Positions 3,185-38,700 of a stretch of 38,700 bases of DNA are shown one piece after another (position 1 is the first letter of the stretch; every line of letters begins with the position of its first letter). The position numbers were made by a program, and so were the translations under genes. The DNA is taken from contig JAVKOQ020000117.1 in the NCBI GenBank assembly GCA_031835245.2, positions 124,001-162,700 of the forward strand. Reading direction: 5' to 3'. The notes under the pieces were generated by a model. That model was not told the origin of the DNA and searched no databases. It worked only from the letters and a program-made list of their open reading frames with translations. The DNA comes from Balamuthia mandrillaris (taxonomy: Eukaryota).

Positions 3185-3712
3185 CTGATGGTTGTTTGAA
3201 AAAATATGTTTTTTTTTTTTCCTTGCTGGTTTCCTCTTCCACTTCTTATACTACTTGAATCACAGAAAGAAAAAAGGAGAAAAAGCAAAGAAAAAAAAAA
3301 CACCAACAACACGGCCCAAAGTGAGAAAAAAAAGAAAACTTCTCCTTTCTTTCTTGTTTTTCTTTCTGCTTCCCGCTTTCTTCTCTCTTTTCGATAAGGA
3401 AAATTATGGAGCCTCCCGAATACTGGACTTTGTCTCCTCCTCCCTCACGCTGGTCCATAGGGAACGCGCAAGACAAACTTTTCTCGCGATCTCTTCTCAC
3501 AAACAAAGTAGGCACGTCGACATCAAATTCTTTCGTCGACACTGAAAATCCGGGACGACGTGATATGAAAAGGTGACGTGTATTCCTCAAAACAGGAAAA
3601 ATTTTCAAAAATGGTAAAAAACAGGTGTCTCTTCGACAAACAATAAAATAAAAAACAAAACAAAAACTAACAGCTCAAACAAATATTATCTGTCGTTGTG
3701 GACCACCTGGGA

Positions 3713-24297: not shown

Positions 24298-26579
24298 ATG
24301 GCTGCTGGAAATATTTTGTTCTTGTTGGTCGTGTTGACCGTGGCCAGCTGTTATGTCGGCGCAGCCCCTCAGCTGCGTGTGTTGAACGCCTCTCCTCCCT
24401 GGTGGGGCAGCATCACCAACGACATGCAGGTGGACGTGGCTGAGGAGACGCTCTTCGTTCTGGTAACTGCTGGTGCTGTCTCCCAGTACGAAGCCGTGCC
24501 TACTGGCTACCAGCTCGTCACTGTCAAACAGCAAACCGTCGGAGCCACCATCTTCAGCGAGAAGTTCTTGTTCGAAGAGGGCAAGAGCTACACCCTTTGG
24601 TTCGTCACCAAAACCGACGGAATGGGTTCGTTCTATCCTCTGAATTTTGTTTTATCTTGCTTACATCAAAAAATAACTAAAACAACTCAAAAAAAAAAAA
24701 ACAGGCGGTACCGCGTATGAAGCTGGACTGTCCTCCGAGAACGACCAGGTCATCCCCGGTGATGGCGCGCGGGTGTCGCTGCTCCATATTGGTTGTACTA
24801 CTCACCCTCTTCTGGGCGGTTGTGGCGAGGAAAACGTTTTCCTGGACATGCATCTTCAAGGACCAACCGACCAGTCTGCCCCCTTCGTGGCTACCAACGT
24901 CAAAGCGACCAAAGTCGTCAACGACGGTGCCTACATTGTAAAAATCAGACATGCCTCCAGCAACATACCCATCATTTCGGTTAGCATTTTTTTCTAACGC
25001 CAAAAATCTCCAGCGCTAAACCACAAAGTACTTACCTTGTGTGTCGAAAAATGAAAACAGAGTCCCTCGGTGACCTTTGGTCCTGGCGAGTTCTGGAGCG
25101 TTTTCTTGTTCGATCACTCCTTCCTCCGCAACGGAAGTGAGCCTTGCCTTGTCATCGTACCCGAATATGGACACGGAGATTTTGGTTCGTTCCCCTCCCA
25201 AAATCATCTCTCTCTCTCTCTCTCTCTTTTGGTCTAACGATTGTTTTTGCCGCAGATTCTCCTGGCCCTTGCGAGCAAGGAGATGAAGTAGCGGCCGTCC
25301 CTACCGACGTCTACAGCATCTCTGACAACAGCACCCTCCGCAACTGCGACACTGGCTGCGCTGGCGGCCCCTCCGCCGTGGCCGGCTTGGAGAACCACCC
25401 CAACATCACCGCCTGTGCCGGCGTGTTCACAGGTTACGTGGGTGGTCCCTCCGCTCAGAGCTTGTGCGCCCGATCTTGGCACGTCTGTTCTCAAACGAGG
25501 TACAGTGCCTCTCCCCCTTTTATATTTATCCATACATATTTTTTTTCCAGGGTTTGACACCCGCAAAAAAAAAAATTGTGTAGCGCGACGGACCGAGCTC
25601 TCCTGAAGCAAGTTACCTACGAAGAGTCCGCCGATGAGTTTGACGGCTGCTACACTTATGACGCTGCTCATGACTACGATACCTGCAGACCTTGTACTGG
25701 CAACATCCATGAGGATGACATGGCTGGTTGGTGTTTTTTCTTGGATCTCCCTTTGTTTGCTTATCTTCTTGTTAACGTCCGTTTGTTTCTCTCTTATCTC
25801 TTTGCTTTGTCCTTATTCTTTCAGGAATGGGTAGGGATTGTAAGTCTCACAATCCGAATGGTATTCATGGAGTGACTCACCTGCGTGACCCTGGCTGCAC
25901 CAAGAGCGGTCGAGTGGATTACTGCTGTGAAGGCTACAAGGAAAGCAAAGGCTGCCAATACGTCCAGAACTACACCTCTGGTGTCGTTTGTTGTGCCGAT
26001 AATGCTGAGAATCCTTGTTTTGATGGCCAATGCCCCAACGACTGCTGCGGCAATGGGCTCTGTGACCGTTCCTTCGGAACTTGCTCTTGCTTGCCTGGCT
26101 TCTCCGGCGAGGACTGCTGTACTGGTACACTATCGCTTGCCTTTACGCTGTTTCATTCAACCGTTTTTATGCATCCCTAACACGTTGAAACCTTTTCAGA
26201 ATGTGGCAAGTTGACCTGTGAGGACTGTTTCAACTCGAGCGTCTGTGGCTGGTGTGCCAACACTCAGGAATGCGTTGACATTTCTTCCACTACCTGCTTC
26301 GAGTTTGCTGAGAGCTGCCCTGTTATCTTGAAGGAAGAAGAAGACGATGGAACCATCAACGGTGTGCCCATTGGCGGTGTGATTGGTGCTGCTATCGGCG
26401 GTCTCGCTGTGACAATCTTGGTGGTTGGTGGCATCCTTGGCTTCTTCTTGTACAAGAAGTTCGCTGTGGGAGAGTACGCCGCCATGTGGGAGGATATGTT
26501 CTCCAAGAATGCCCACACTTCTTCCCTCTATGAAGGCAACACAACAGAAATTTCCTCTGGCCTTTACACTGGCCAGTAA
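24298..26579 (+). CDS. Single-pass surface protein: signal peptide, DUF4397-like region, Cys-rich region, EGF-like and PSI domains, GxxxG TM helix, integrin-beta-like tail
   Basis: MAAGNILFLLVVLTVASCYVGA signal; LRVLNASP; EGF CPNDCCGNGLCDRSFGTCSCLPGFSGEDC; PSI TCEDCFNSSVCGWCANTQEC; TM GGVIGAAIGGLAVTILVVGGILGFFLY. Multi-exon. Confidence 0.82.
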
Positions 26580-27058
26580 CTCTGTCGTTCCCTTTCCTCT
26601 TCTTTCTCTGTAGAAATATATTTTCATCAAAAAAAAAGTTTTTCTCTTTCAAAGTTGGTCTCTCTCTCTCTCTCTCTCTCTTGTGTGACACTAATTTTCT
26701 TCTCTCAGAGAAATAAACCGAGCAGACAGAGGAGAGGACGTGAGAGTGAAAGTGAAAGTTCCACTTTTGACTTCCCAAACAACCCCACCAACCCACAAAG
26801 GAAAGATTACCCACAAAGGGAAAGATCAGTTGCTGTTGTTAGGGCGTTTCAGGACTTGGTCGTACCTTTACCCTTTTTCTCATTTTTTTTTTCGTTTCAA
26901 AAACGTAGCGACTGCACACTCACATACGTTGCAGAGACCGTCCTCACTTCTGACGTGCGAGCAATAAGCGTGACTACCAAATCTGTTCTCTTGTCTTGGT
27001 TTATTATTCTTGTTGGCGTTCGTACTCCTGTAGTCTCTCTCTCTCTCTCTCTGTCTGT

Positions 27059-27107
<49 letters not shown>

Positions 27108-27201
27108 CCACTTTGCTTCGCCTTTCTCCTCTCTCTTTTATCTCTTAAAGTTGTTCCTTTTGATAGTCTCAAAGTCTCTCCCCATTTCTTTGCAGATAGA
27201 A

Positions 27202-28147
27202 ATGCAAAGAGGCGGAAGACCACTTGTGATGAAAGTGGACTTCACCGCGCTTTTGCCTTGGGAACTTGGGCTTGAAGAAGAGCTTGGTGAAGATGTGGAC
27301 CGCATGGTTGCTGTGTTAGAAAAATATCGAGACCACGTTTCACTTTTGAAGTCACTCACACTGGCAGACCTGAAAAAAGCAACCAAACAAAAGTTCAAGG
27401 CTGTATATTCTGGTTTTTTTGTTACCTTGTTACAAGCTGACTATGTATGTATAACCATTATTTCTTTGAACCATTCTAACAAGCTTGGTTTCTTACCATC
27501 ACAGCATGCACAGCTCTTTGGAACTTTTTATGATTACTTGAAAGATACACTGTTTACTCTTTCAAAGACATCTCTTATTCAAATCCAAAGGTATAGATTT
27601 GTTGTTTGTGATGCATTATTCTTTTATTCATTCTTTGTTCTATTGCAGAAAGTTAAGAACAAAATATCCTGATGTGATAATGGCAAGTAATACAAAAAGC
27701 AAAGCTCGTTTAGTGGATTGTTTGTGTTCCTTTATTGGAGTGGGTCCAAACTTATCTACTCCAAAGCCAACTCCCATTCAAACTCTTTCTTCACTTTCAC
27801 CTCCACAAATTAACCCTATAGCTTCTACTTCTTCAAGTATTACTACAACAGTTAGTCCTGTTGCTTATTCTACTGCATCTTCTACTGTGTTAACTGTTGA
27901 TAAGAAATCAGTTTCTTCAATAGGTCAAAAGAGAAAAGAAAGAGAAAACACCAATTCAACTCCAACAATTTCATCTTCACAAACAACTTCTACAACACAG
28001 CTTGTAGAAGAAACAGAGAAATTTGCACAATACTTACAACAACACTTTTTAAATCCTTGGCATACTACACATACACCTATAGATACAAAACTTTTAATGG
28101 AATTGTTATCAGAGTTTCAAAAGTATTTAATTGAACATCATATATAA
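27202..28147 (+). CDS. Hypothetical protein, possibly with SAP/helix-extension-helix-like segments
   Basis: ATG at 27202. ORF 27151-27672 splices in phase (donor 27591, acceptor ~27648) to ORF 27599-28147, and an earlier intron (~27400-27504) is probable. More AT-rich than the host genes to the left. Confidence 0.55.
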
Positions 28148-28354
28148 TTTTTTAAATTAATAAAAACATGTTCTAAACTAAAAAGGGCGCTCCTTTTTGG
28201 AAATTATTTTTGCAAAATAATTTTAAATTAATTTTAAAAAATATTAAATAAATAGTTTAGGATTAACAAAAAACAATTAAGTTTATCAAAAAATACTTTA
28301 AAAAGCCAAATTTATTGTGTGAAAGTGATGAACAATTGAATTATCTTACTTACA

Positions 28355-28783
28355 TTAATCATCACAATCATCACTTTCTTCTTTATTCTTCTTTTTCATT
28401 TTTCTCTTTTGTTGTGATGCTAAATAAGCATGCTTGGATATAGCTGACTTGATAATAGAGGATTGGGAAGAAGAAGGAAGAGAAGATGATTTAAATTGTT
28501 GTTGAAAGGCCAATCTACATTGAATAATGTGGTCCTCTAACAGATGTACTGTTAAAGCACTAAAACGTTGCATAATGCTTTCTTTTTCATTGTCCCAAAA
28601 ATGAGTAGAAAAAGCAAAATATCGATGCTTTTGTGCTAAACAAGCAAAGGCCATACACTCAGTAGAGGGATGCAAATCAATGATGCTGTCTTCATCTTTT
28701 GTGTAAAGACAAAGAAACAACTTGTAAATGAGGACAGGTTTGGTGGGAACAGTAACTGCCGTTTTAGGACCAAGGGTGAGTAC
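28355..28783 (-). pseudogene. 5'-truncated coding fragment resembling the C-terminal part of an N4/N6 (beta-class) DNA methyltransferase
   Basis: Frame is open from 28783 with no ATG before the motif. PTKPVLIYKLFLCLYTKDEDSIIDLHPSTECMAFACLAQKHRYFAF parallels the family pattern P.QKP..L...LI...T..GD.VLDPF.GSG....A.....R.FIG, with the FxGxG loop degenerate. Recognised by eye only. Confidence 0.5.
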
Positions 28784-28858
28784 TCAGAACCTACAGCATT
28801 CAACTCCCCTAGTTAGGGTTAGGGGCGGGTACTCAGAACCTACAGCATTCAACTCCCC
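28780..28858. repeat. Perfect 30-bp direct repeat flanking a 19-bp spacer that contains TTAGGGTTAGGG
   Basis: GTACTCAGAACCTACAGCATTCAACTCCCC at 28780-28809 and 28829-28858; spacer TAGTTAGGGTTAGGGGCGG. Confidence 0.95.
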
Positions 28859-28962: not shown

Positions 28963-30466
28963 CTAACTGGATATAATCATAATATCATCATCATCATCAT
29001 CATCATCATTCTCCTTTGTTTCTTCCTCTTCATCCAAGATGGATATGACTGTAGTGGTAGTAGTAGAAGTAGGAGATGATGGGAGGGAAGCATGGTTGTC
29101 ATCCGGTGTGTCAAAGTCCTCATCATGGGCCACCAAGTATTTGTCTTTCAAAGCATCGAGATTGTTGAAGAATTCTGTGAGGAGATTGCGCCATTTGTCA
29201 TAGCAATCATTGTTGGTTCGGCGTTGGGTAGGCAAGTGTTTGGCAATCTCCAACCAAGACCATCCATCACACAAGCGCCAAGTGACAAGTCTACGGATTT
29301 CTGGTGTCTGCCAAGCAATCCGTTGTCGATGACCATTCTTCTGATATTTGAGTCGATTGGATAACATTTGTTGTCGCTGCTGAAGTGCTCTGCGAACTCG
29401 TTGTCGTGGTGGTGTTTTTTCTTTTGAGTTATGATTCCTTTCATCATCATCATCGTTATCATCGTTTTTTTTCAGAACATCATCATTAGGAAAAGTAGGT
29501 AAGAATGGCTGCTCTTGATGACGAGAGGTGAGGAATGCTTTGTGAATGGGTGATCCGTTGACCAACTTGGGAAGTACAGGAGCTACAAACTCATCCACCA
29601 GCTCATTCAAGCCACTGAAAAAACCTTGTAGAATGCCAGAGATATGTTGACGGCAAAGCTGACGATGAATATTGGGCCAACGAAGAGGAGATTTGTTTTT
29701 GGCCGCATAAGTTGCTGCAGCTTCAGCTAACACATCCTTGTCAAACTCATCTGAATGATTGTCTACCCAAGCAGTACAACATTCAAGCCACAAGGAGCGA
29801 TAAAATCGTATTTGTTGATCTTTGGTTGGTAAATCTGTTCGTTTCATGAAACTAAAGAAGCAGTGTAAAAGAAAGAAAAAGAAAGAAAAAGAGAAAAAGA
29901 GAAAAAGAGAAAAAGAAAGAATGAGAAAGAAAGAGAGAAAAAGAGACAAAAAAACAAAGTGTGAATAAATGATGCAATGTTAAAAGAAGAACAAATAGAC
30001 CAACACCAATCCATCAAAACAATTATTGTTTAGACCATGAATGTTGTTGCTGTTACAATAAACCTCTGCGTTCGAGCTGAGCGCTGAGTCTAAAGGTGCA
30101 TTTTTGAATGCAAGCAAGCAAGCAAACAAACAAACAAGCCATGACTGAATAGATTGATAGATAGTGGTAGATACCATCCAACACAAAACAAACCAGCAAA
30201 CAAACAAACCAACAAACAAACAACAACAAGCAAAGGCCAACAAAAAAAAAAACAAACAAACAAACAAACAAACAAACAAACCGTTGGCGAACAGCATGGA
30301 TAAAACTCTGATAGTTGGTATCTGCAGACCACTTGGATTGTTGTAAAGCCTCTGGGGATAGATTGTGAAATGCTTCTTTGGTAACTAGCTCTGGAGCAAT
30401 CACTGCAAGGGAGTGAGGATTAAAAAAAACCACAAAGAGAAAAAGTAAGCACAGGTGGTTTATAGA

Positions 30467-31792: not shown

Positions 31793-33180
31793 AGTGACAC
31801 CATCACCAAGAAGGGTTTTGGATAGAGGAGAAGCATTCCTGCTGGTTGTGGTGATAATAGAAGTAGGTGATGATGCTGGGGATGAAGAGATGGAAGAAAC
31901 AGAGGAAAAGGAGGAGGAGGAGGAGGAGGAGGAGGCAGCAAGGGTATCAAGCTGTTGTTGGATACTTTCATCATGCAAACGATAAAGACTGGCAATCATG
32001 ACATCACGCACAGAGCTCAAGGCATACCCCACATCCAAAATCAACCATTGAACAAAGGCTCCTACGTTATGGCGTTGGAGATTCAAAGGAAGAGCTGGCA
32101 AACATTGATGATGTGCACAATGCGCTTCCCAGATGGCCAAAGTCCAAGCATGTTTATGTTGGGTCGAAGGGCTCCATCGACTCGTCACTGCTGTCAACTC
32201 TGTCCAGCGCTCTTCTGACAAATGGTTCATCAATGTGATAGCACGAGAAAGACGTCTGCCGGCACCATCACCACCGTTACGACTACTGCTGCCATGTGTG
32301 GTATCATCATTATTATCATTTGCTGTTCTAGCTCCAATATGTTGGTTATCTCTTTTCTTCTTTTCTTGTTTTTCTTCTTTGTGTTTTTCTTTATCTTCTT
32401 CTTCTTCTTCTTCTTCTTCTTTGTCATCGGTCAATAACAACAAATCTATCAACGTTGGTGTGGCTGTTGTTTTGCTTGTTGCATCTATATCTGTTTCTGC
32501 TCCTCCTCCTCCTCTTCTGTCTAATGAGGATGATGATAATGACAATAAATTACAATTGCTACCGCTATCCATAACATCTTCATTGTTCTCAAAGACAAAG
32601 GACTCTGAATTTGTTGAAGAAGAAGAAGAAGAAGAAGAAGAAGATAAAGAAGAAGAAAAAGAAGAAGCAAATGAAGAAGAAGAACCAGAAGAAGAAATCA
32701 TCCTTTTTGGTTGTTGTTGTCGTGGTTGTGATTGGGTTGTTGATGCTGTGGTGGTAATGGTGGCGGTGGTGGTGGCGGTGGTGGTGGCGGTGGTAGATGA
32801 AAAGGGTGATGCAGAAAAAGGAGGTGAACAGAGTTCTGCAGGGTTATCAACATTAGCAATAACTGGAGCAGAATCAAGGGTGGTAGCTGATGGTGGTGTT
32901 TTTAACCAATAATGATCCAAAAACTGCTTGCGAATGAAAGAGCGAGAGTCCAGAGCCTGATAGGGAGGCAAGTGATGATAGAGAGATGTTGTGGATAAGG
33001 ATGATGATGATGATGATATTGAGACAATCGTTATTTCATCATCCTCTTCTTTTGCTGCTGTTGCTACTATTGTTTTTGCTACTGCTACTTCTTTGTTGTT
33101 GTTGTTGTTGTTGTTGTTGTTATTGTTGTTGTTTATTGGTAGAGGTTGGTCAAAGGCAGCAGGAATAGATAGATTATCTT
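28963..33180 (-). CDS. Tyrosine recombinase fused to a C-terminal Myb/SANT domain (about 1200 aa from the exons traced; 5' end unresolved)
   Basis: In-phase GT-AG exons 33180-30556, 30402-30282, 30089-30064, 29834-28963. Core-binding-like region (SPSTQHKHAWTLAIWEAHC..VGAFVQWL). Catalytic set TGAR (R, 31483), VTKG (K, 31249), HSLR (30853-30842), AGW (30748), QVY (Y, 30718). Myb: AWQTPEIRRLV..WSWLEIAKHLPTQRRTNNDCYDKWRNLL. Confidence 0.88.
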
Positions 33181-33191
33181 CTGTTTGTTAA

Positions 33192-33227
<36 letters not shown>

Positions 33228-33649
33228 ATAGTAGACACAAACACAAACAACAAATTGTGAAACAAAAGAAACGAGAAGTTAGTAATTGAGGATGAATAAA
33301 TAAAGAGATGATAAAACTAAATGAGAACTATGTGGTTACTCGTTTTGTTTTTCCTTTTCTTTCTCTTTTTTTTCCTTTTTCATTTTTATAATTGCCTTTT
33401 CATCATACTCAGTTGTCTTTTTTTGTTGCCTATCTATTATTTACAACAACAATCACTACTATTACTCACTTACTCTCACTCAGCACTCTTAACCATTATT
33501 ACCATCACCACCATTATTACTTTACTATTCATCTATCTATCCATTGTTTGTTTAACCAATATTATTACCATCAACCAACCAACCAACCAACCAACCAACC
33601 AACTCAAGCTATCACTCAACTAACCAACAAATATAAAAAGAGAAAGAGA

Positions 33650-33693
33650 TCACCTGCCTGTGTTACGGCGTTGTGAACGAGTTGTGGCTCCTT

Positions 33694-33729
<36 letters not shown>

Positions 33730-34122
33730 TAGATGACGCAGCCACAGCAGCAGCAGCACTTTGCAAAGATGATTTGGCTGCAGCAGTAGCAATAGCTTTT
33801 TGGGCAGCAGCTGCAGCCTTGCGCGTAGATTTGTTGCTAAGGCTCTTGGATGCACTTGTGTTTTCCTCTCCTTTCTGTTTTTCTGCTTCTTTTTCTCCAG
33901 CTTTTGCTTCTTCTTCTTCTTCTACTTCTTCTTCTGCTTTCTCCTCTTCTTCTTTTTCTTCTTCTTCTTCCTTGTCTCTGCTAGCATCTTTGCTTCTCTG
34001 TTCCTCTTCTTTTTCTTTTTCTTTTTCTTTTTCTTTTTCTTCTTCTTCTTCTTCTTCTTCTTCTTCTTCTGCTGTTGCTGCTGCTTGTTTAGCTGGGTCA
34101 CTAGCAGTTTGCTTTGATACTA

Positions 34123-34181
<59 letters not shown>

Positions 34182-34185
34182 TAAG

Positions 34186-34222
<37 letters not shown>

Positions 34223-36757
34223 CCACAATCAGTAAGTAATGGAATGAGAAATCACAAAGGCATAACACTGCAAACAAACACCAAAAAGATAGCGCTCCGA
34301 TGGAGCGCTAAACAATCAACACCAAAAGACAATCAAAAAACAATGAATAATAAAAACACAAAACTGGAGTTAAAAAGCTGCCGCTCCGACGGAGCGCTAC
34401 TGCATAAGGATAGAATTGCAACCAAAACAGCCAACAAAAAGAAAAAAACACAAAGAGGAAAAGGACAAACAATCCAACAAACAAACTCCAACCAACAGAC
34501 AAAATGAAATATAATACATACATCCCAACACGTCGATCAGAATGGAATCATCACTCTCTTCATCCACTGCAACTGCTGATGGAGCTGTCTTGGGCATATT
34601 TGTCTTGCTTTTGCTATTTCCACCACCACCACCACGTGGTGTATCTGTATGCATGCATGCATGCATGCATGCAAGTGAGATGCGATGCATTTGTGTGTTG
34701 TTATTGTGCAAAGAAAGGACGGATATAAGCAAGTAATAACAAAAAGAAAAAAAGAAAAAAAAAAAACGAGTAGGAGTAGTGGATGTTGTGGTTGTTGTAA
34801 CCACCAAACATGAGCACCTCTTACCTGTTGCAGGAGTGATATCAACACTCATGAGACTGGCAATCTCATCGTCATCATCATCATCAGCATCAGCATCAGC
34901 ATCATCATTCTCTGAGGAGCTGCTATTGCTACTGCTGCTGCTGCTGATACTAGGAGCAGTAGACTTGGTAGAAGCTGTAGGCTTCTTTTTCTTCTTGGAT
35001 TTTTCTTCTTCCTGCTCTGACTCCTCTGACTTATCTGCCGCCTCTGACTCCTCCGACTCGGTGGCGGTCTTCTTTTTCTTCTTTTTCTGCTGTTGCTTCT
35101 GCTTCTGCTTCTGCTTCTGTTTTTGCTTCTGCTTCTGCTTTTGCTTCTGCTTTTGCTTCTTTTTCTTTTCTTTCAGCAGCAGATCATCATCTGCTTTCCG
35201 TGGCTTCTTGCTTGTTGCAGGAGAAGAAGAGGCAGCAGAGGATGACATAGCTCTTGGGCGCTTTGTTGAGCTTGGTTTTTGCTGCTTTCTTTTTGCTGCT
35301 ATTGCTGCTGTTGCTGCTGCTGCTATGTCCATTTTGTCTACAAACTCACCAACTGATGTAGCATTTGCATCATCATCACCACCACCACCACCACCACCAC
35401 CACCCAGACGACTGCCATCATCAAGACTAAACTCTGCATCATTCAAACTACTACTCTGGTGGTCCACAGCAGCAAAAGAGCGAAGGTCAGGCCCAAAAAA
35501 CTCTGTCAAGTCAATGCAGGGGCTGGCATCAACAGAGATATCTTGCTGCAGCTCACTGCTCTTCTGAGCCAGCTTGTCCATGGCTTTTTGGTGCCTAACC
35601 GAATGGCGTTTGGCGCGATGCTTCTCCCTCTTCATTTCTGTAGTGCCGACTTTGGTAGAGGCTGTATGGATGGGCTGCCACGTTTTGTCTTCCAATTGAT
35701 CCACATATTGTAAATCCCTGGAGAGTAACAGAAAGAGAAAAAGAGAGAGAGAGAAAGAGAGAAAGAGAGAGAGAGAGAGAAATAAAGAGGAAAAGAGAAA
35801 AAGAAAAGTGAAAAAATGGTGAGTTGTTGCTATGAAACAAACAAACAAACAAACAAACAAATAAAAAAACGACTTACCAATCAGCTGCGAGTGGTGATAT
35901 AGTATCCAGCTCAGGCAAATCTTTGACATGCACAATAGCAGCTGCATCGGATAACTGGCCTGCTGGCATGTTAGCTGTAGCAGAGCTGCTAGCTGTACTC
36001 TTGTTCTTGCTTTTGGTGCTGCTGCTGCTGCTTTTGCTTCGTCTTCGCTCAGGTTTTTTGGATTTTTCCACTGCGATGTGCGGCCACACTCGCTCCAGCT
36101 GAGAACGAACCGGATGATGAATGCGTGTCTTCCAGACCTTTCTGTCCAAAGGATCCAACTCCAGCAGAGTATTTTGTTGTTGCGCTTCCTTCACCAAGCA
36201 GCGACGAACAGCAAGCACCAACCGCCTAACATCCTCCAAGGGTCCAGAAAGGTTGATGCTGGTAGAAATGCGCATGCCTTTCAAGGATTTCAGACTGGCA
36301 AAGTTCAACGCGTTCTCTGCCAAGGCTTCTTGCACCGTAAAGGGAGGACAATAATGGGTCAGCTTTATACGGTAGAGGAACAACTTTTCCTTGGCGGAAT
36401 GCTGCTTATCTACTATCGCTTCCTTTTGGGCCGCTTGCTCTAATTGCTGGTGATCCAGTGGGGGATGTAAGAAGGCCTCTGGATCTTCCTCCATCATCGC
36501 TTCTTCTTCTTCTTCTTCTTCTTCTTCTTCTTCTTCTTCTTCTTCTTCTTGTTGCTCTTCGTCTTCATCTTCCTCTTCCTCTTCTTCTGACATCCTCTCT
36601 TGTTGTCCTTTCTTTTGATGACGGCTTGTTGTTGCCTTTGGGAGAGTAGCTGACATAAGGGCATCTGCCAAAGACGACTCATGTAACCATTCTTGGCTCA
36701 ATGGTGGCAAGCGAGTATTTTCCTCGTGTGTTGGGCTATCACTATGAGTAAGCGAGA

Positions 36758-36801
<44 letters not shown>

Positions 36802-38700
36802 GTGGACAAGCAAAGGGAATTTAAAGCGGAAAGGATAACAAGTCTCACTCGCAGCAAGCAAGTAAGGAAAGGAGGGAAGTAGGCACAACATACTGGATAG
36901 TTTTAGCATGTAATATCATAAATAGTTTCTGCAGGCCTAGAGGGAGTTGTCGATATACTAACAACAGTTCTTCACGGGTGAAGGGACCCTGAAAAACACG
37001 TCCTTTTCGCTTGCGCCGTTCATCAGTGGAGGGCATTTCCTTGAGAATGCTATACACTGCAGCATTAATGAGATTACGGATCCAAATCCCGGTGGGTGTC
37101 TCATAAAATCTGGACTGAGAGGGAGTAGCATCCAACAGTTGTTGTGGTGGCAGTGGTGAAGATTGGGGTGGATCCATAGGCAAGACCTCGTTGCCACGAT
37201 CAAGACCAAGCGCAGCTTGATGCAGCACGTCCCAATGACCCTTGCGAATGGATTGCGCTAGCCACTTCCACCACGGATTTTGCAGACCGTTGATGATCCA
37301 TGGTCCTTCAACGATGCTACCATGGCAGCGTAGGCCATTGGCCACGATATCACCCAATTCCTGGATGATTCCTTCATTTTGGGCCTGTAGCCATCCATAT
37401 GTACATTAAGGGATAACCAACAAAAAAAAAAAAATGAAAGTTAGCACTTTCCTTCCACCAGGCGCACATAACAATCTCCCAACCCACCCTAATAACCAAC
37501 TAAACAAACAAACAAACAGAAAAAAAAACAAACAGATGATGATGGACCTTGCGTCTACAAAACCTCAGAAAGATTTTGCTTTGCTCTGTGTTAACTTCTG
37601 AAGGAGGGCTGACCACCATGGGAATGTAATAATAAAACACCAACTGCTTCTGGATGGCTGGAGCCAAGGGGTGCAGCAGACGAAAGTCAGTTTTCGAAAT
37701 GAGGCCCCGGTTCTCTGCTGCCAGTTGGGAAATAACATCAATGGACATATGCTCCACTAGGGACAGATCTTGTCGAAAAGCATTGAGCGTAAAGGATTTC
37801 GCATGGGCCGCTGGCAAATCCTGTTTTGTGAGCACAAAATACGGTAGCATCTCCCGTGGAGGTAAGCTTTTCTTTGATTTGGCATCATCGAAAATATGTT
37901 CCGCAGCAGCAAGCGCCACTTTCAAGACCCTGTTGTTTTGAATCTGATTCATTGCCCTGACACAACATAACACACACATAGAAGTAAGTAGGTTGGTAGT
38001 AGGTAAGTAGGTAGGTAGGTAGGTCAGAAAACAAACAAACAAACAAACAAACAAACAAACAAACAAACAAACAAACAAACAAACAAACAAACAAACAAAC
38101 AAACACACACACACACACAAACAAACAAACAAACAAACAAACAAACAAACAAACAAACAAACAAACAACAAGAAGCACATACTCAGTCTTGGAGAGTTGA
38201 ACTGCATTGGAGAGCTTCAACAAAGTGTCAGCAAATGACCATTCTCGTGGTTTTACTTTGGTGTTGGGGTCTTCTACCATCGACACAATCTGATGCACCA
38301 GTAGTGCAAGAAGATGAATTATGTTGTAATAGCGACCGTAGATCGGCATGAGTGGTGATAACCACACACCATTGTTGCCTGCGAGCTGATAATGCTGTAT
38401 GACATCGCTTGCTGAACGATACACCGCGTTAAGATCATTGTCCGATATCTTGGCTGCCACCCTCTGCTGCTGAGGAGAAGAGGCAGCTGATAAGGAAGAA
38501 GAGACGGAGGGAGGGCTAGAAGGCGAGGTGGTGGTTGCTACAATAGCTGTGGTTCTCAGCGGAGTAGAAGGAGGAGTGAAGAGATTGCTGCTGGCCTCAC
38601 CACCCATCACACCAGCAGCACCAGATGAAGATGATGACGATGAGGAAAATGGTGAATGACCACTACTATTGCTTCTACCAGAAGGCGTGGGGCTCTCTTG
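33650..38700 (-). CDS. Large multi-exon hypothetical protein (>1200 aa, 5' end outside window), co-oriented and directly upstream of the recombinase
   Basis: Exons >38700-38183, 37956-37548, 37384-36894, 36741-35878, 35717-34825, 34644-34522 and 34119-33650 all join in phase at GT-AG junctions. No domain recognised. Confidence 0.75.
34290..34399. repeat. Two copies of a GC-rich palindrome (CGCTCC-GAY-GGAGCG) in an AT-rich intron
   Basis: TAGCGCTCC-GAT-GGAGCGCTA at 34290-34310 and CGCTCC-GAC-GGAGCG(CTA) at 34382-34399. Confidence 0.85.
37990..38170. repeat. (TAGG)n, (AAAC)n and (CA)n intronic microsatellites
   Basis: Visible arrays within intron 38182-37957. Confidence 0.9.

Follow-up and report, generated by a model that had tools for sequence, protein, structure and literature searches.

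A tyrosine recombinase (YR) gene of Balamuthia mandrillaris and the large gene directly upstream of it can be set beside several described mobile systems. The kinetoplastid TATE element is presented in the published account as a telomere-associated YR retrotransposon with an orphan open reading frame (ORF) upstream of the YR (PMC6681497), Cryptons are characterised as eukaryotic YR DNA elements without a reverse transcriptase (RT) and with introns, some of which carry a second ORF (PMC3212892, PMC13465315), and endogenous nimaviruses are reported to have telomere-specific YR integrases and possible concatemers or episomes (PMC10871703). The locus considered here lies in a stretch of 38,700 nucleotides (nt) of contig JAVKOQ020000117.1 (GenBank assembly GCA_031835245.2, positions 124,001 to 162,700 of the forward strand), called the window and numbered from its first letter, and both genes are read from its minus strand. 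The tentative explanation offered for it, held at somewhat less than even confidence, is that the upstream gene is a multicopy, CpG-decaying orphan gene within a telomere-inserting unit that spans at least 9.9 kb and has a recombinase with a Myb domain (YR-Myb), and that it is spliced onto this recombinase.

The element is TATE-like in its target and arrays and Crypton-like in lacking an RT, and the domains that mark TATE (RT), CryptonA, CryptonF and Starship elements are absent from it. What it has in common with TATE, as described in PMC6681497, is its tyrosine recombinase, a location within telomeric hexamers, clustering in tandem and an orphan ORF that precedes the YR; the flanks of relatives point to the insertion, their arrays show the clusters, and the window itself holds one telomeric doublet. 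It differs from TATE in its C-terminal Myb domain, in the six sense introns of the orphan gene, and in the lack of an RT or RNase H ORF in the window unit so far and in related units of 3.2-3.4 kb, where no ORF of RT size is found. A retroelement is expected to lose introns on its sense strand. The likeness to Cryptons, in the terms of PMC3212892 and PMC13465315, is that of a eukaryotic YR DNA element without RT and with introns. In contrast to Cryptons, none of 14 members of the recombinase family matches DUF3504 or GCR1_C, the units have telomeric repeats at their ends where Cryptons have direct repeats of 4-6 bp, and a Myb domain and shuffled arrays are present; the telomeric hexamers at both ends of related units, one end of which lies in the window, could stand in for the terminal direct repeats of Cryptons. 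With nimaviruses the likeness is at the level of the target, a YR-linked insertion into telomeric repeats as reported in PMC10871703, whereas nimaviruses are large viruses and no viral gene is found here. An earlier reading made from the letters of the window (the sequence-only reading) had placed the element close to cargo-carrying giant YR elements. Of that comparison only the general trait remains, a YR element able to carry extra genes as Starships are defined in PMC13465315, since DUF3435 is matched in 0 of 14 aligned members, the element measures about 10 kb so far with one extra gene without recognisable host origin, and its host is not fungal. In the mostly open-access literature that was searched, no description of a telomere-bounded YR-Myb DNA element was found.

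The recombinase is one of a family widespread among protists. A phmmer search with the B. mandrillaris subfamily B returns 400 proteins at E<=0.001; among ten that were looked up, two are named Monocercomonoides exilis and eight are metagenomic. All 14 aligned members, the window protein included, have the catalytic R, K, H-x-x-R, W and Y without exception, and a Myb domain is present in 13, the remaining sequence being the window core cut before its own Myb. PF00589 at E<=0.5 matches four of the 14 (best 1.3e-6), the window protein not being one of them. A metagenome scan gave 25 recombinase loci, and at least two tandem TTAGGG or TTGGGG hexamers occur in 17 of these, mostly at unit ends; when each locus is shuffled 200 times, 0-1 of the shuffled versions has them. 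Controls were these shuffles and the window's host part. These loci are partly related (L008-L019 look like one host, L001 pairs with L002, and L020 with L021), and the matches at L022, L024 and L025 are weak or look bacterial. Without the latter three there are nine groups: six contain a perfect doublet, L004 has a run with imperfections, and neither L005 nor L007 has any. At L001 the end of the unit carries (TTAGGG)19, 1.2 kb past the stop codon, and at L002 three repeats precede the same unit. Loci L008-L018 consist of units of about 3.2 kb, 65-70% alike, that follow one another head to tail in varying orders with TTGGGG at each joint; each has one recombinase ORF of 510-535 amino acids (aa) under translation table 6 and a conserved end segment of about 160 bp, and the recognition helix of their Myb domain is unlike that of the TTAGGG-flanked relatives. 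The recombinase was not found in viral contigs. It is very probable that the recombinase family targets telomeric repeats, and telomeric repeats at unit ends, overlooked by the sequence-only reading, are the defining trait of the element.

The features of the window unit are given below in window coordinates.

28780..28858, plus strand: likely end of the unit, with (TTAGGG)2 at 28813-28824 between 30-bp direct repeats at 28780-28809 and 28829-28858
28963..29834, minus strand: last exon of the recombinase, with the Myb domain at 29334-29170
30064..30089, minus strand: recombinase exon 3 of 26 nt, junction in agreement with protein P0014
30282..30402, minus strand: recombinase exon 2, junction in agreement with P0014
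30556..33180, minus strand: main exon of the recombinase, a 306-aa low-complexity N-terminus with first Met at 32701, then the catalytic core
R 31483, K 31249, H-x-x-R 30853-30844, W 30748 and Y 30718, minus strand: catalytic residues of the recombinase, computed from positions in P0004
33181..33339, minus strand: intron-like stretch with TACTAAC, (GCTT)n and the CAG acceptor
33336..33429, minus strand: A-rich (64% A) exon-like segment, either a terminal exon ending KQNE* or an internal exon one base out of phase
33650..34119, minus strand: upstream gene exon 7, ending RNTGR*, with candidate donors at 33666 (GT, phase 1), 33657 (GC, phase 1) and 33653 (GT, phase 2)
34522..34644, minus strand: upstream gene exon 6, with ILIDV resembling a SUMO-interacting motif (SIM)
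34825..35717, minus strand: upstream gene exon 5, low complexity with basic tracts and a SIM-like CIDLT
35878..36741, minus strand: upstream gene exon 4, an acidic tract and a domain of about 120 aa at 36437-36051 with a weak KH-like lead only
36894..37384, minus strand: upstream gene exon 3, globular in appearance, 81-92% identical to paralogues
37548..37956, minus strand: upstream gene exon 2, globular in appearance, without known family
38183..38700, minus strand: upstream gene exon 1, which runs off the window edge; 74 further N-terminal residues are present in paralogue P0007

The telomere repeat of Balamuthia is given as TTAGGG in the genome paper (10.1101/2025.02.25.640156). The only telomeric 12-mer found in the 38.7 kb at up to two mismatches, at 28810-28826, lies 139 nt beyond the recombinase stop, and short end duplications similar to those of the window are present at L003 and L023. 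As the same scan finds neither telomeric repeats nor end motifs in the interval that separates the two genes or onward to 38700, both genes probably lie within one unit of at least 9.9 kb. The bounding of relatives' units by such repeats, and the CpG depletion, CpG losses in copies and tetranucleotide-rich introns common to both genes, count on the same side. The expectation of an element larger than 10 kb thus holds to the extent of one such stretch measured from the unit-end signal, and the telomere would lie to the right of the unit. Several observations weigh against this arrangement. The right end of the unit lies beyond the window, recombinase transcription points away from the direction of the G strand (as at L006, unlike most relatives), and the CpG-poor block runs about 2 kb past the telomeric doublet, which makes shared composition a sign of a shared compartment and not of a shared unit. 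Scores of the Myb domain against TRF1/2 are no higher than against c-Myb repeats; the top match of the window domain is c-Myb, and for L001 single repeats of TRF and c-Myb score alike. Evidence that the two genes occur together elsewhere is thin. It comes from the chimeric gene model P0064, in which the recombinase end of subfamily C is joined to a piece of the orphan gene as if across head-to-tail units, although in an order reversed relative to the window and with a different subfamily; none of 11 listed orphan accessions adjoins any of 22 listed recombinase accessions, the nearest being 146 apart, in a comparison by eye of incomplete lists. The reversed order in P0064 and the lack of adjoining accessions, together with the single-gene, approximately 3.2-kb build of related units and the absence of orphan matches from the 25 metagenomic loci, would suit an orphan gene that is an independent repeat, either another element or a subtelomeric duplicate, lying beside the recombinase since both gather near chromosome ends. 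Such an origin is unlikely, as the interval between the genes is free of telomeric repeats and end motifs, the recombinase exon lacks an early start of its own, and the annotation lists behind the accession comparison are incomplete.

The upstream gene behaves as a repeat. Its homologues are found at 78-92% identity on at least 11 B. mandrillaris contigs and none is found outside this species; all three matches to an exon 3 query are B. mandrillaris proteins (81-92% identity), and the clusters of these matches comprise eight different proteins, spread over at least 11 contigs, with one of them identical on five. The label of orphan is thus apt with respect to other species, in which no homologue was found, and inapt within the species, where the gene is multicopy. 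In the DNA run X1, 273 short variant contigs map to 1.2 kb, consistent with many copies, and run X5 contains a fraction of 0.33 of the words within 3 million letters, which hints that copies are numerous. The observed-to-expected ratio (o/e) of CpG is 0.81 in the host part of the window (1-26900), 0.43 in the recombinase and 0.46 in the orphan gene; the two genes do not differ from each other (p=0.59), each differs from the host part (p<1e-8), and the best change point falls near 26500. A comparison of four orphan paralogues and five recombinase copies shows that 16 of 30 amino-acid differences between the orphan gene and P0007 are CpG-loss transitions (expectation 1.6%), that the other three orphan paralogues have 2-4 CpG losses on the paralogue side and 8-14 on the window side, and that CpG losses account for 11 of 57 single-base changes in the recombinase copy P0017. 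This pattern is that of a methylated repeat, the methylation being predicted from sequence. Introns of both genes are rich in tetranucleotide arrays (11 arrays versus 1). Copy number, CpG loss and tetranucleotide introns agree with the sequence-only reading in assigning the upstream gene to the repeat compartment rather than to the host gene set. An ordinary host gene family beside a transposon, which the six spliceosomal introns, the intact 1,255-codon frame and some database names of host enzymes might suggest, is highly improbable and is rejected, given the presence on at least 11 contigs with one protein identical on five, the CpG decay in the copies, and database names that are mutually discordant and without Pfam support. 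Conserved single-copy host orthologues, which would have spoken for such a family, are not what is found, as the gene is multicopy and no relatives were found in other species.

Database names attached to P0005, P0006, P0010, P0012, P0028 and P0035 (VASt, carbonic anhydrase, phosphodiesterase) lack domain support, and the Rap1GAP and DEAD-box gene models are chimeras with the recombinase. In B. mandrillaris the recombinase falls into three subfamilies (A, B and C), grouped at support 100 in a quick-method tree. Chimeric gene models, in which subfamily C is joined with subfamily B (P0016, P0036), with the piece of the orphan gene (P0064) or with genes of the host (P0028, P0035), fit with arrays of units in this species.

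As the sequence-only reading proposed, splicing reproduces an upstream gene of seven exons in phase: six GT-AG introns join them into 1,255 aa with a single stop and an open 5′ end, and the stop, RNTGR* at 33650, lies 469 nt ahead of the recombinase acceptor. The alignment to the annotated paralogue P0012 spans residues 40-912, over the first four exon junctions, and residues 1049-1094. K, R, D, E, S and Q make up 48% of the protein, no catalytic motif is seen in it, and there are two motifs with a SIM-like pattern. Against Pfam, PHROG and PDB nothing rises above low-complexity noise, an Atlas search with P0012 residues 50-450 gives zero matches, the gene is not found in metagenome or viral contigs, and no distant relatives are found, although the sole full-library HMMER search used the recombinase as query. 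The exon 4 domain scores 0.85 with 153 of 256 features in the Atlas test for KH, a lead only, without a Pfam KH match and with a model pLDDT of 41.6; the AlphaFold models are of low confidence (pLDDT 39.7 and 41.6), below use for a fold search. The composition and motif pattern suggest that the orphan part may be a non-catalytic chromatin-binding or anti-silencing region.

The spliced recombinase model (33180-30556, 30402-30282, 30089-30064, 29834-28963) comprises 1,213 aa with one stop and three junctions as in P0014. Its frame opens at the CAG acceptor at 33181, which needs a phase-1 donor, and the first in-frame ATG, at 32701, is 479 nt past the acceptor, in line with the earlier remark that no ATG is near. 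The intron-like features noted between 33181 and 33650 are also located (TACTAAC at 33284-33278, (TTGG)n at 33603-33572 and (GCTT)n at 33227-33193), and the proposed GC donor at 33657 does join the genes in the correct phase, giving an open frame of 2,467 aa across both. A canonical GT donor at 33666 (GCC/GTAACA), absent from the sequence-only reading, is likewise in phase 1 and gives 2,464 aa. A further GT donor at 33653 is in phase 2 and compatible with the A-rich segment at 33429, of which 90 nt (33429-33340) fit as the internal exon suggested earlier, one base out of phase downstream, or can be read as a terminal exon ending KQNE* for a total of 1,285 aa. At the first A-run (33418) a one-base loss occurs in three contigs and would place a stop inside the 90-nt segment; as a rescue of the internal exon, such a loss is ruled out for the first A-run, and skipping of exon 7 also yields a stop.

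Whether the two genes are expressed as one protein is weighed as follows. The recombinase exon has 160 open codons before its first Met, where the other frames have 7 and 9 stops and one in 5,000 shuffles does as well, and three out-of-frame ATGs lie upstream of M32701. A zinc-finger frame that resembles a first exon precedes the main ORF in L001, L002 and L004; this type occurs in three of the 25 loci and in four of 171 proteins, and the window unit is without one. Together with the two in-phase donors these features favour a fusion, and the 600-aa or peptidase extensions of some relatives count on the same side. In three raw RNA runs, of which 3-5% each was read, 0, 6 and 3 partial reads fall on 32700-33880 with the repeats at both splice sites skipped, which bears on neither side. 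Several findings speak against a fusion. N-terminal extensions measure 1-442 aa in 29 relatives and about 630-670 aa in two others, versus more than 1,500 aa for a fusion here; an orphan-then-recombinase protein is seen in 0 of 184 proteins examined, and a weak search for relatives of 934-2,665 aa found none. The context of M32701 is similar to that of the start annotated for subfamily C, and a single intron of 477-486 nt would surpass in length every one of the nine modelled introns (152-402 nt), engulfing the exon-like A-rich segment ending in a stop. In four orphan paralogues the frame shifts beyond the Gly run, at one of two positions, perhaps through an error of assembly. A possible alternative is that one telomere-targeting unit carries two separate genes, in which case the orphan gene ends at RNTGR* or KQNE* (1,285 aa) and acts as a passenger or trans-acting partner, and the recombinase starts in a mini-exon (e.g., ATG 33532) or at M32701. 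The in-frame stop at 33650, the frameshifted paralogues, the parse into a 224-nt intron, a 90-nt exon and a 159-nt intron-like part that suits the intron sizes of the element, and the fact that most relatives stand alone at 510-770 aa are in keeping with it, as are the Cryptons with a second ORF described in PMC3212892. Less than 500 nt would have to house a terminator and a promoter, however, and the 160 open codons, the three out-of-frame ATGs and the missing zinc-finger first exon remain to be accounted for. Splicing of the orphan gene and the recombinase into a fusion is held as barely more probable than two separate genes, both readings being tentative.

In the proposed course of events, the recombinase would cut out the unit in circular form and then insert this circle by recombination into a TTAGGG tract, whereby units would stack head to tail beside chromosome ends, and the Myb domain may help to recognise the unit ends or the target. 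The orphan gene would form the telomere-side part of the mobile unit, spliced to the recombinase as a long N-terminal extension: one inward-pointing transcript using a phase-1 donor (33666 or 33657) would encode a product longer than 2,460 aa, and the same transcript stopping early would give a short form of 1,255-1,285 aa.

Among the relatives, the contig ends of L004 (1-155 and 3413-3567) overlap by 155 nt, as would fit either a circle of 3,412 bp or tandem units collapsed into one. At L023 (911-6900) telomeric runs enclose a unit of about 5.8 kb with one 1,591-codon recombinase frame, and a piggyBac-type DDE_Tnp_1_7 ORF comes next. The 2,064-aa P0175 has a ubiquitin hydrolase (UCH) at its N-terminus and two regions resembling the recombinase, and L006 has telomeric repeats at 3224-3349 opposite to the gene strand, as in the window, with a tRNA-like sequence near 3600 by eye. 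To the left of the telomeric doublet, the stretch 26500-28780 is AT-rich with a CpG o/e of 0.29 and is probably another repeat; its ORFs (28783-28355, minus; 27034-28147, plus, likely spliced) match neither Pfam nor the fetched proteins. Positions 1-26580 carry what we take by eye to be host-like genes for eIF4G-like, RhoGAP, pyrroline-5-carboxylate reductase, F-box/WWE-like and histidine-phosphatase-like proteins, a mitochondrial carrier, and kelch and EGF-repeat membrane proteins.

The genome paper reports a telomere-to-telomere assembly of the species and states that the mobile elements of Balamuthia are still in need of annotation (10.1101/2025.02.25.640156). The hosts of the family would include amoebae, an oxymonad and a host with the ciliate code, and its recombinase would be a compact eukaryotic site-specific enzyme with a simple repeat target, amenable to plasmid tests. 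Telomere-targeted mobile elements known so far are, to our knowledge, retroelements or viruses. A broader scenario, more doubtful than the fusion, is that an RT-free, telomere-targeting YR-Myb family builds shuffled arrays and that an amoeba lineage of it tripled in size by taking in and fusing a gene of more than 1,250 aa, giving a recombinase of more than 2,460 aa with a chromatin-targeting or anti-silencing module. If true, a small DNA-only recombinase element stacking into telomeric repeats would represent a new way of building subtelomeres, and the window unit would be an example of such elements acquiring a large gene.

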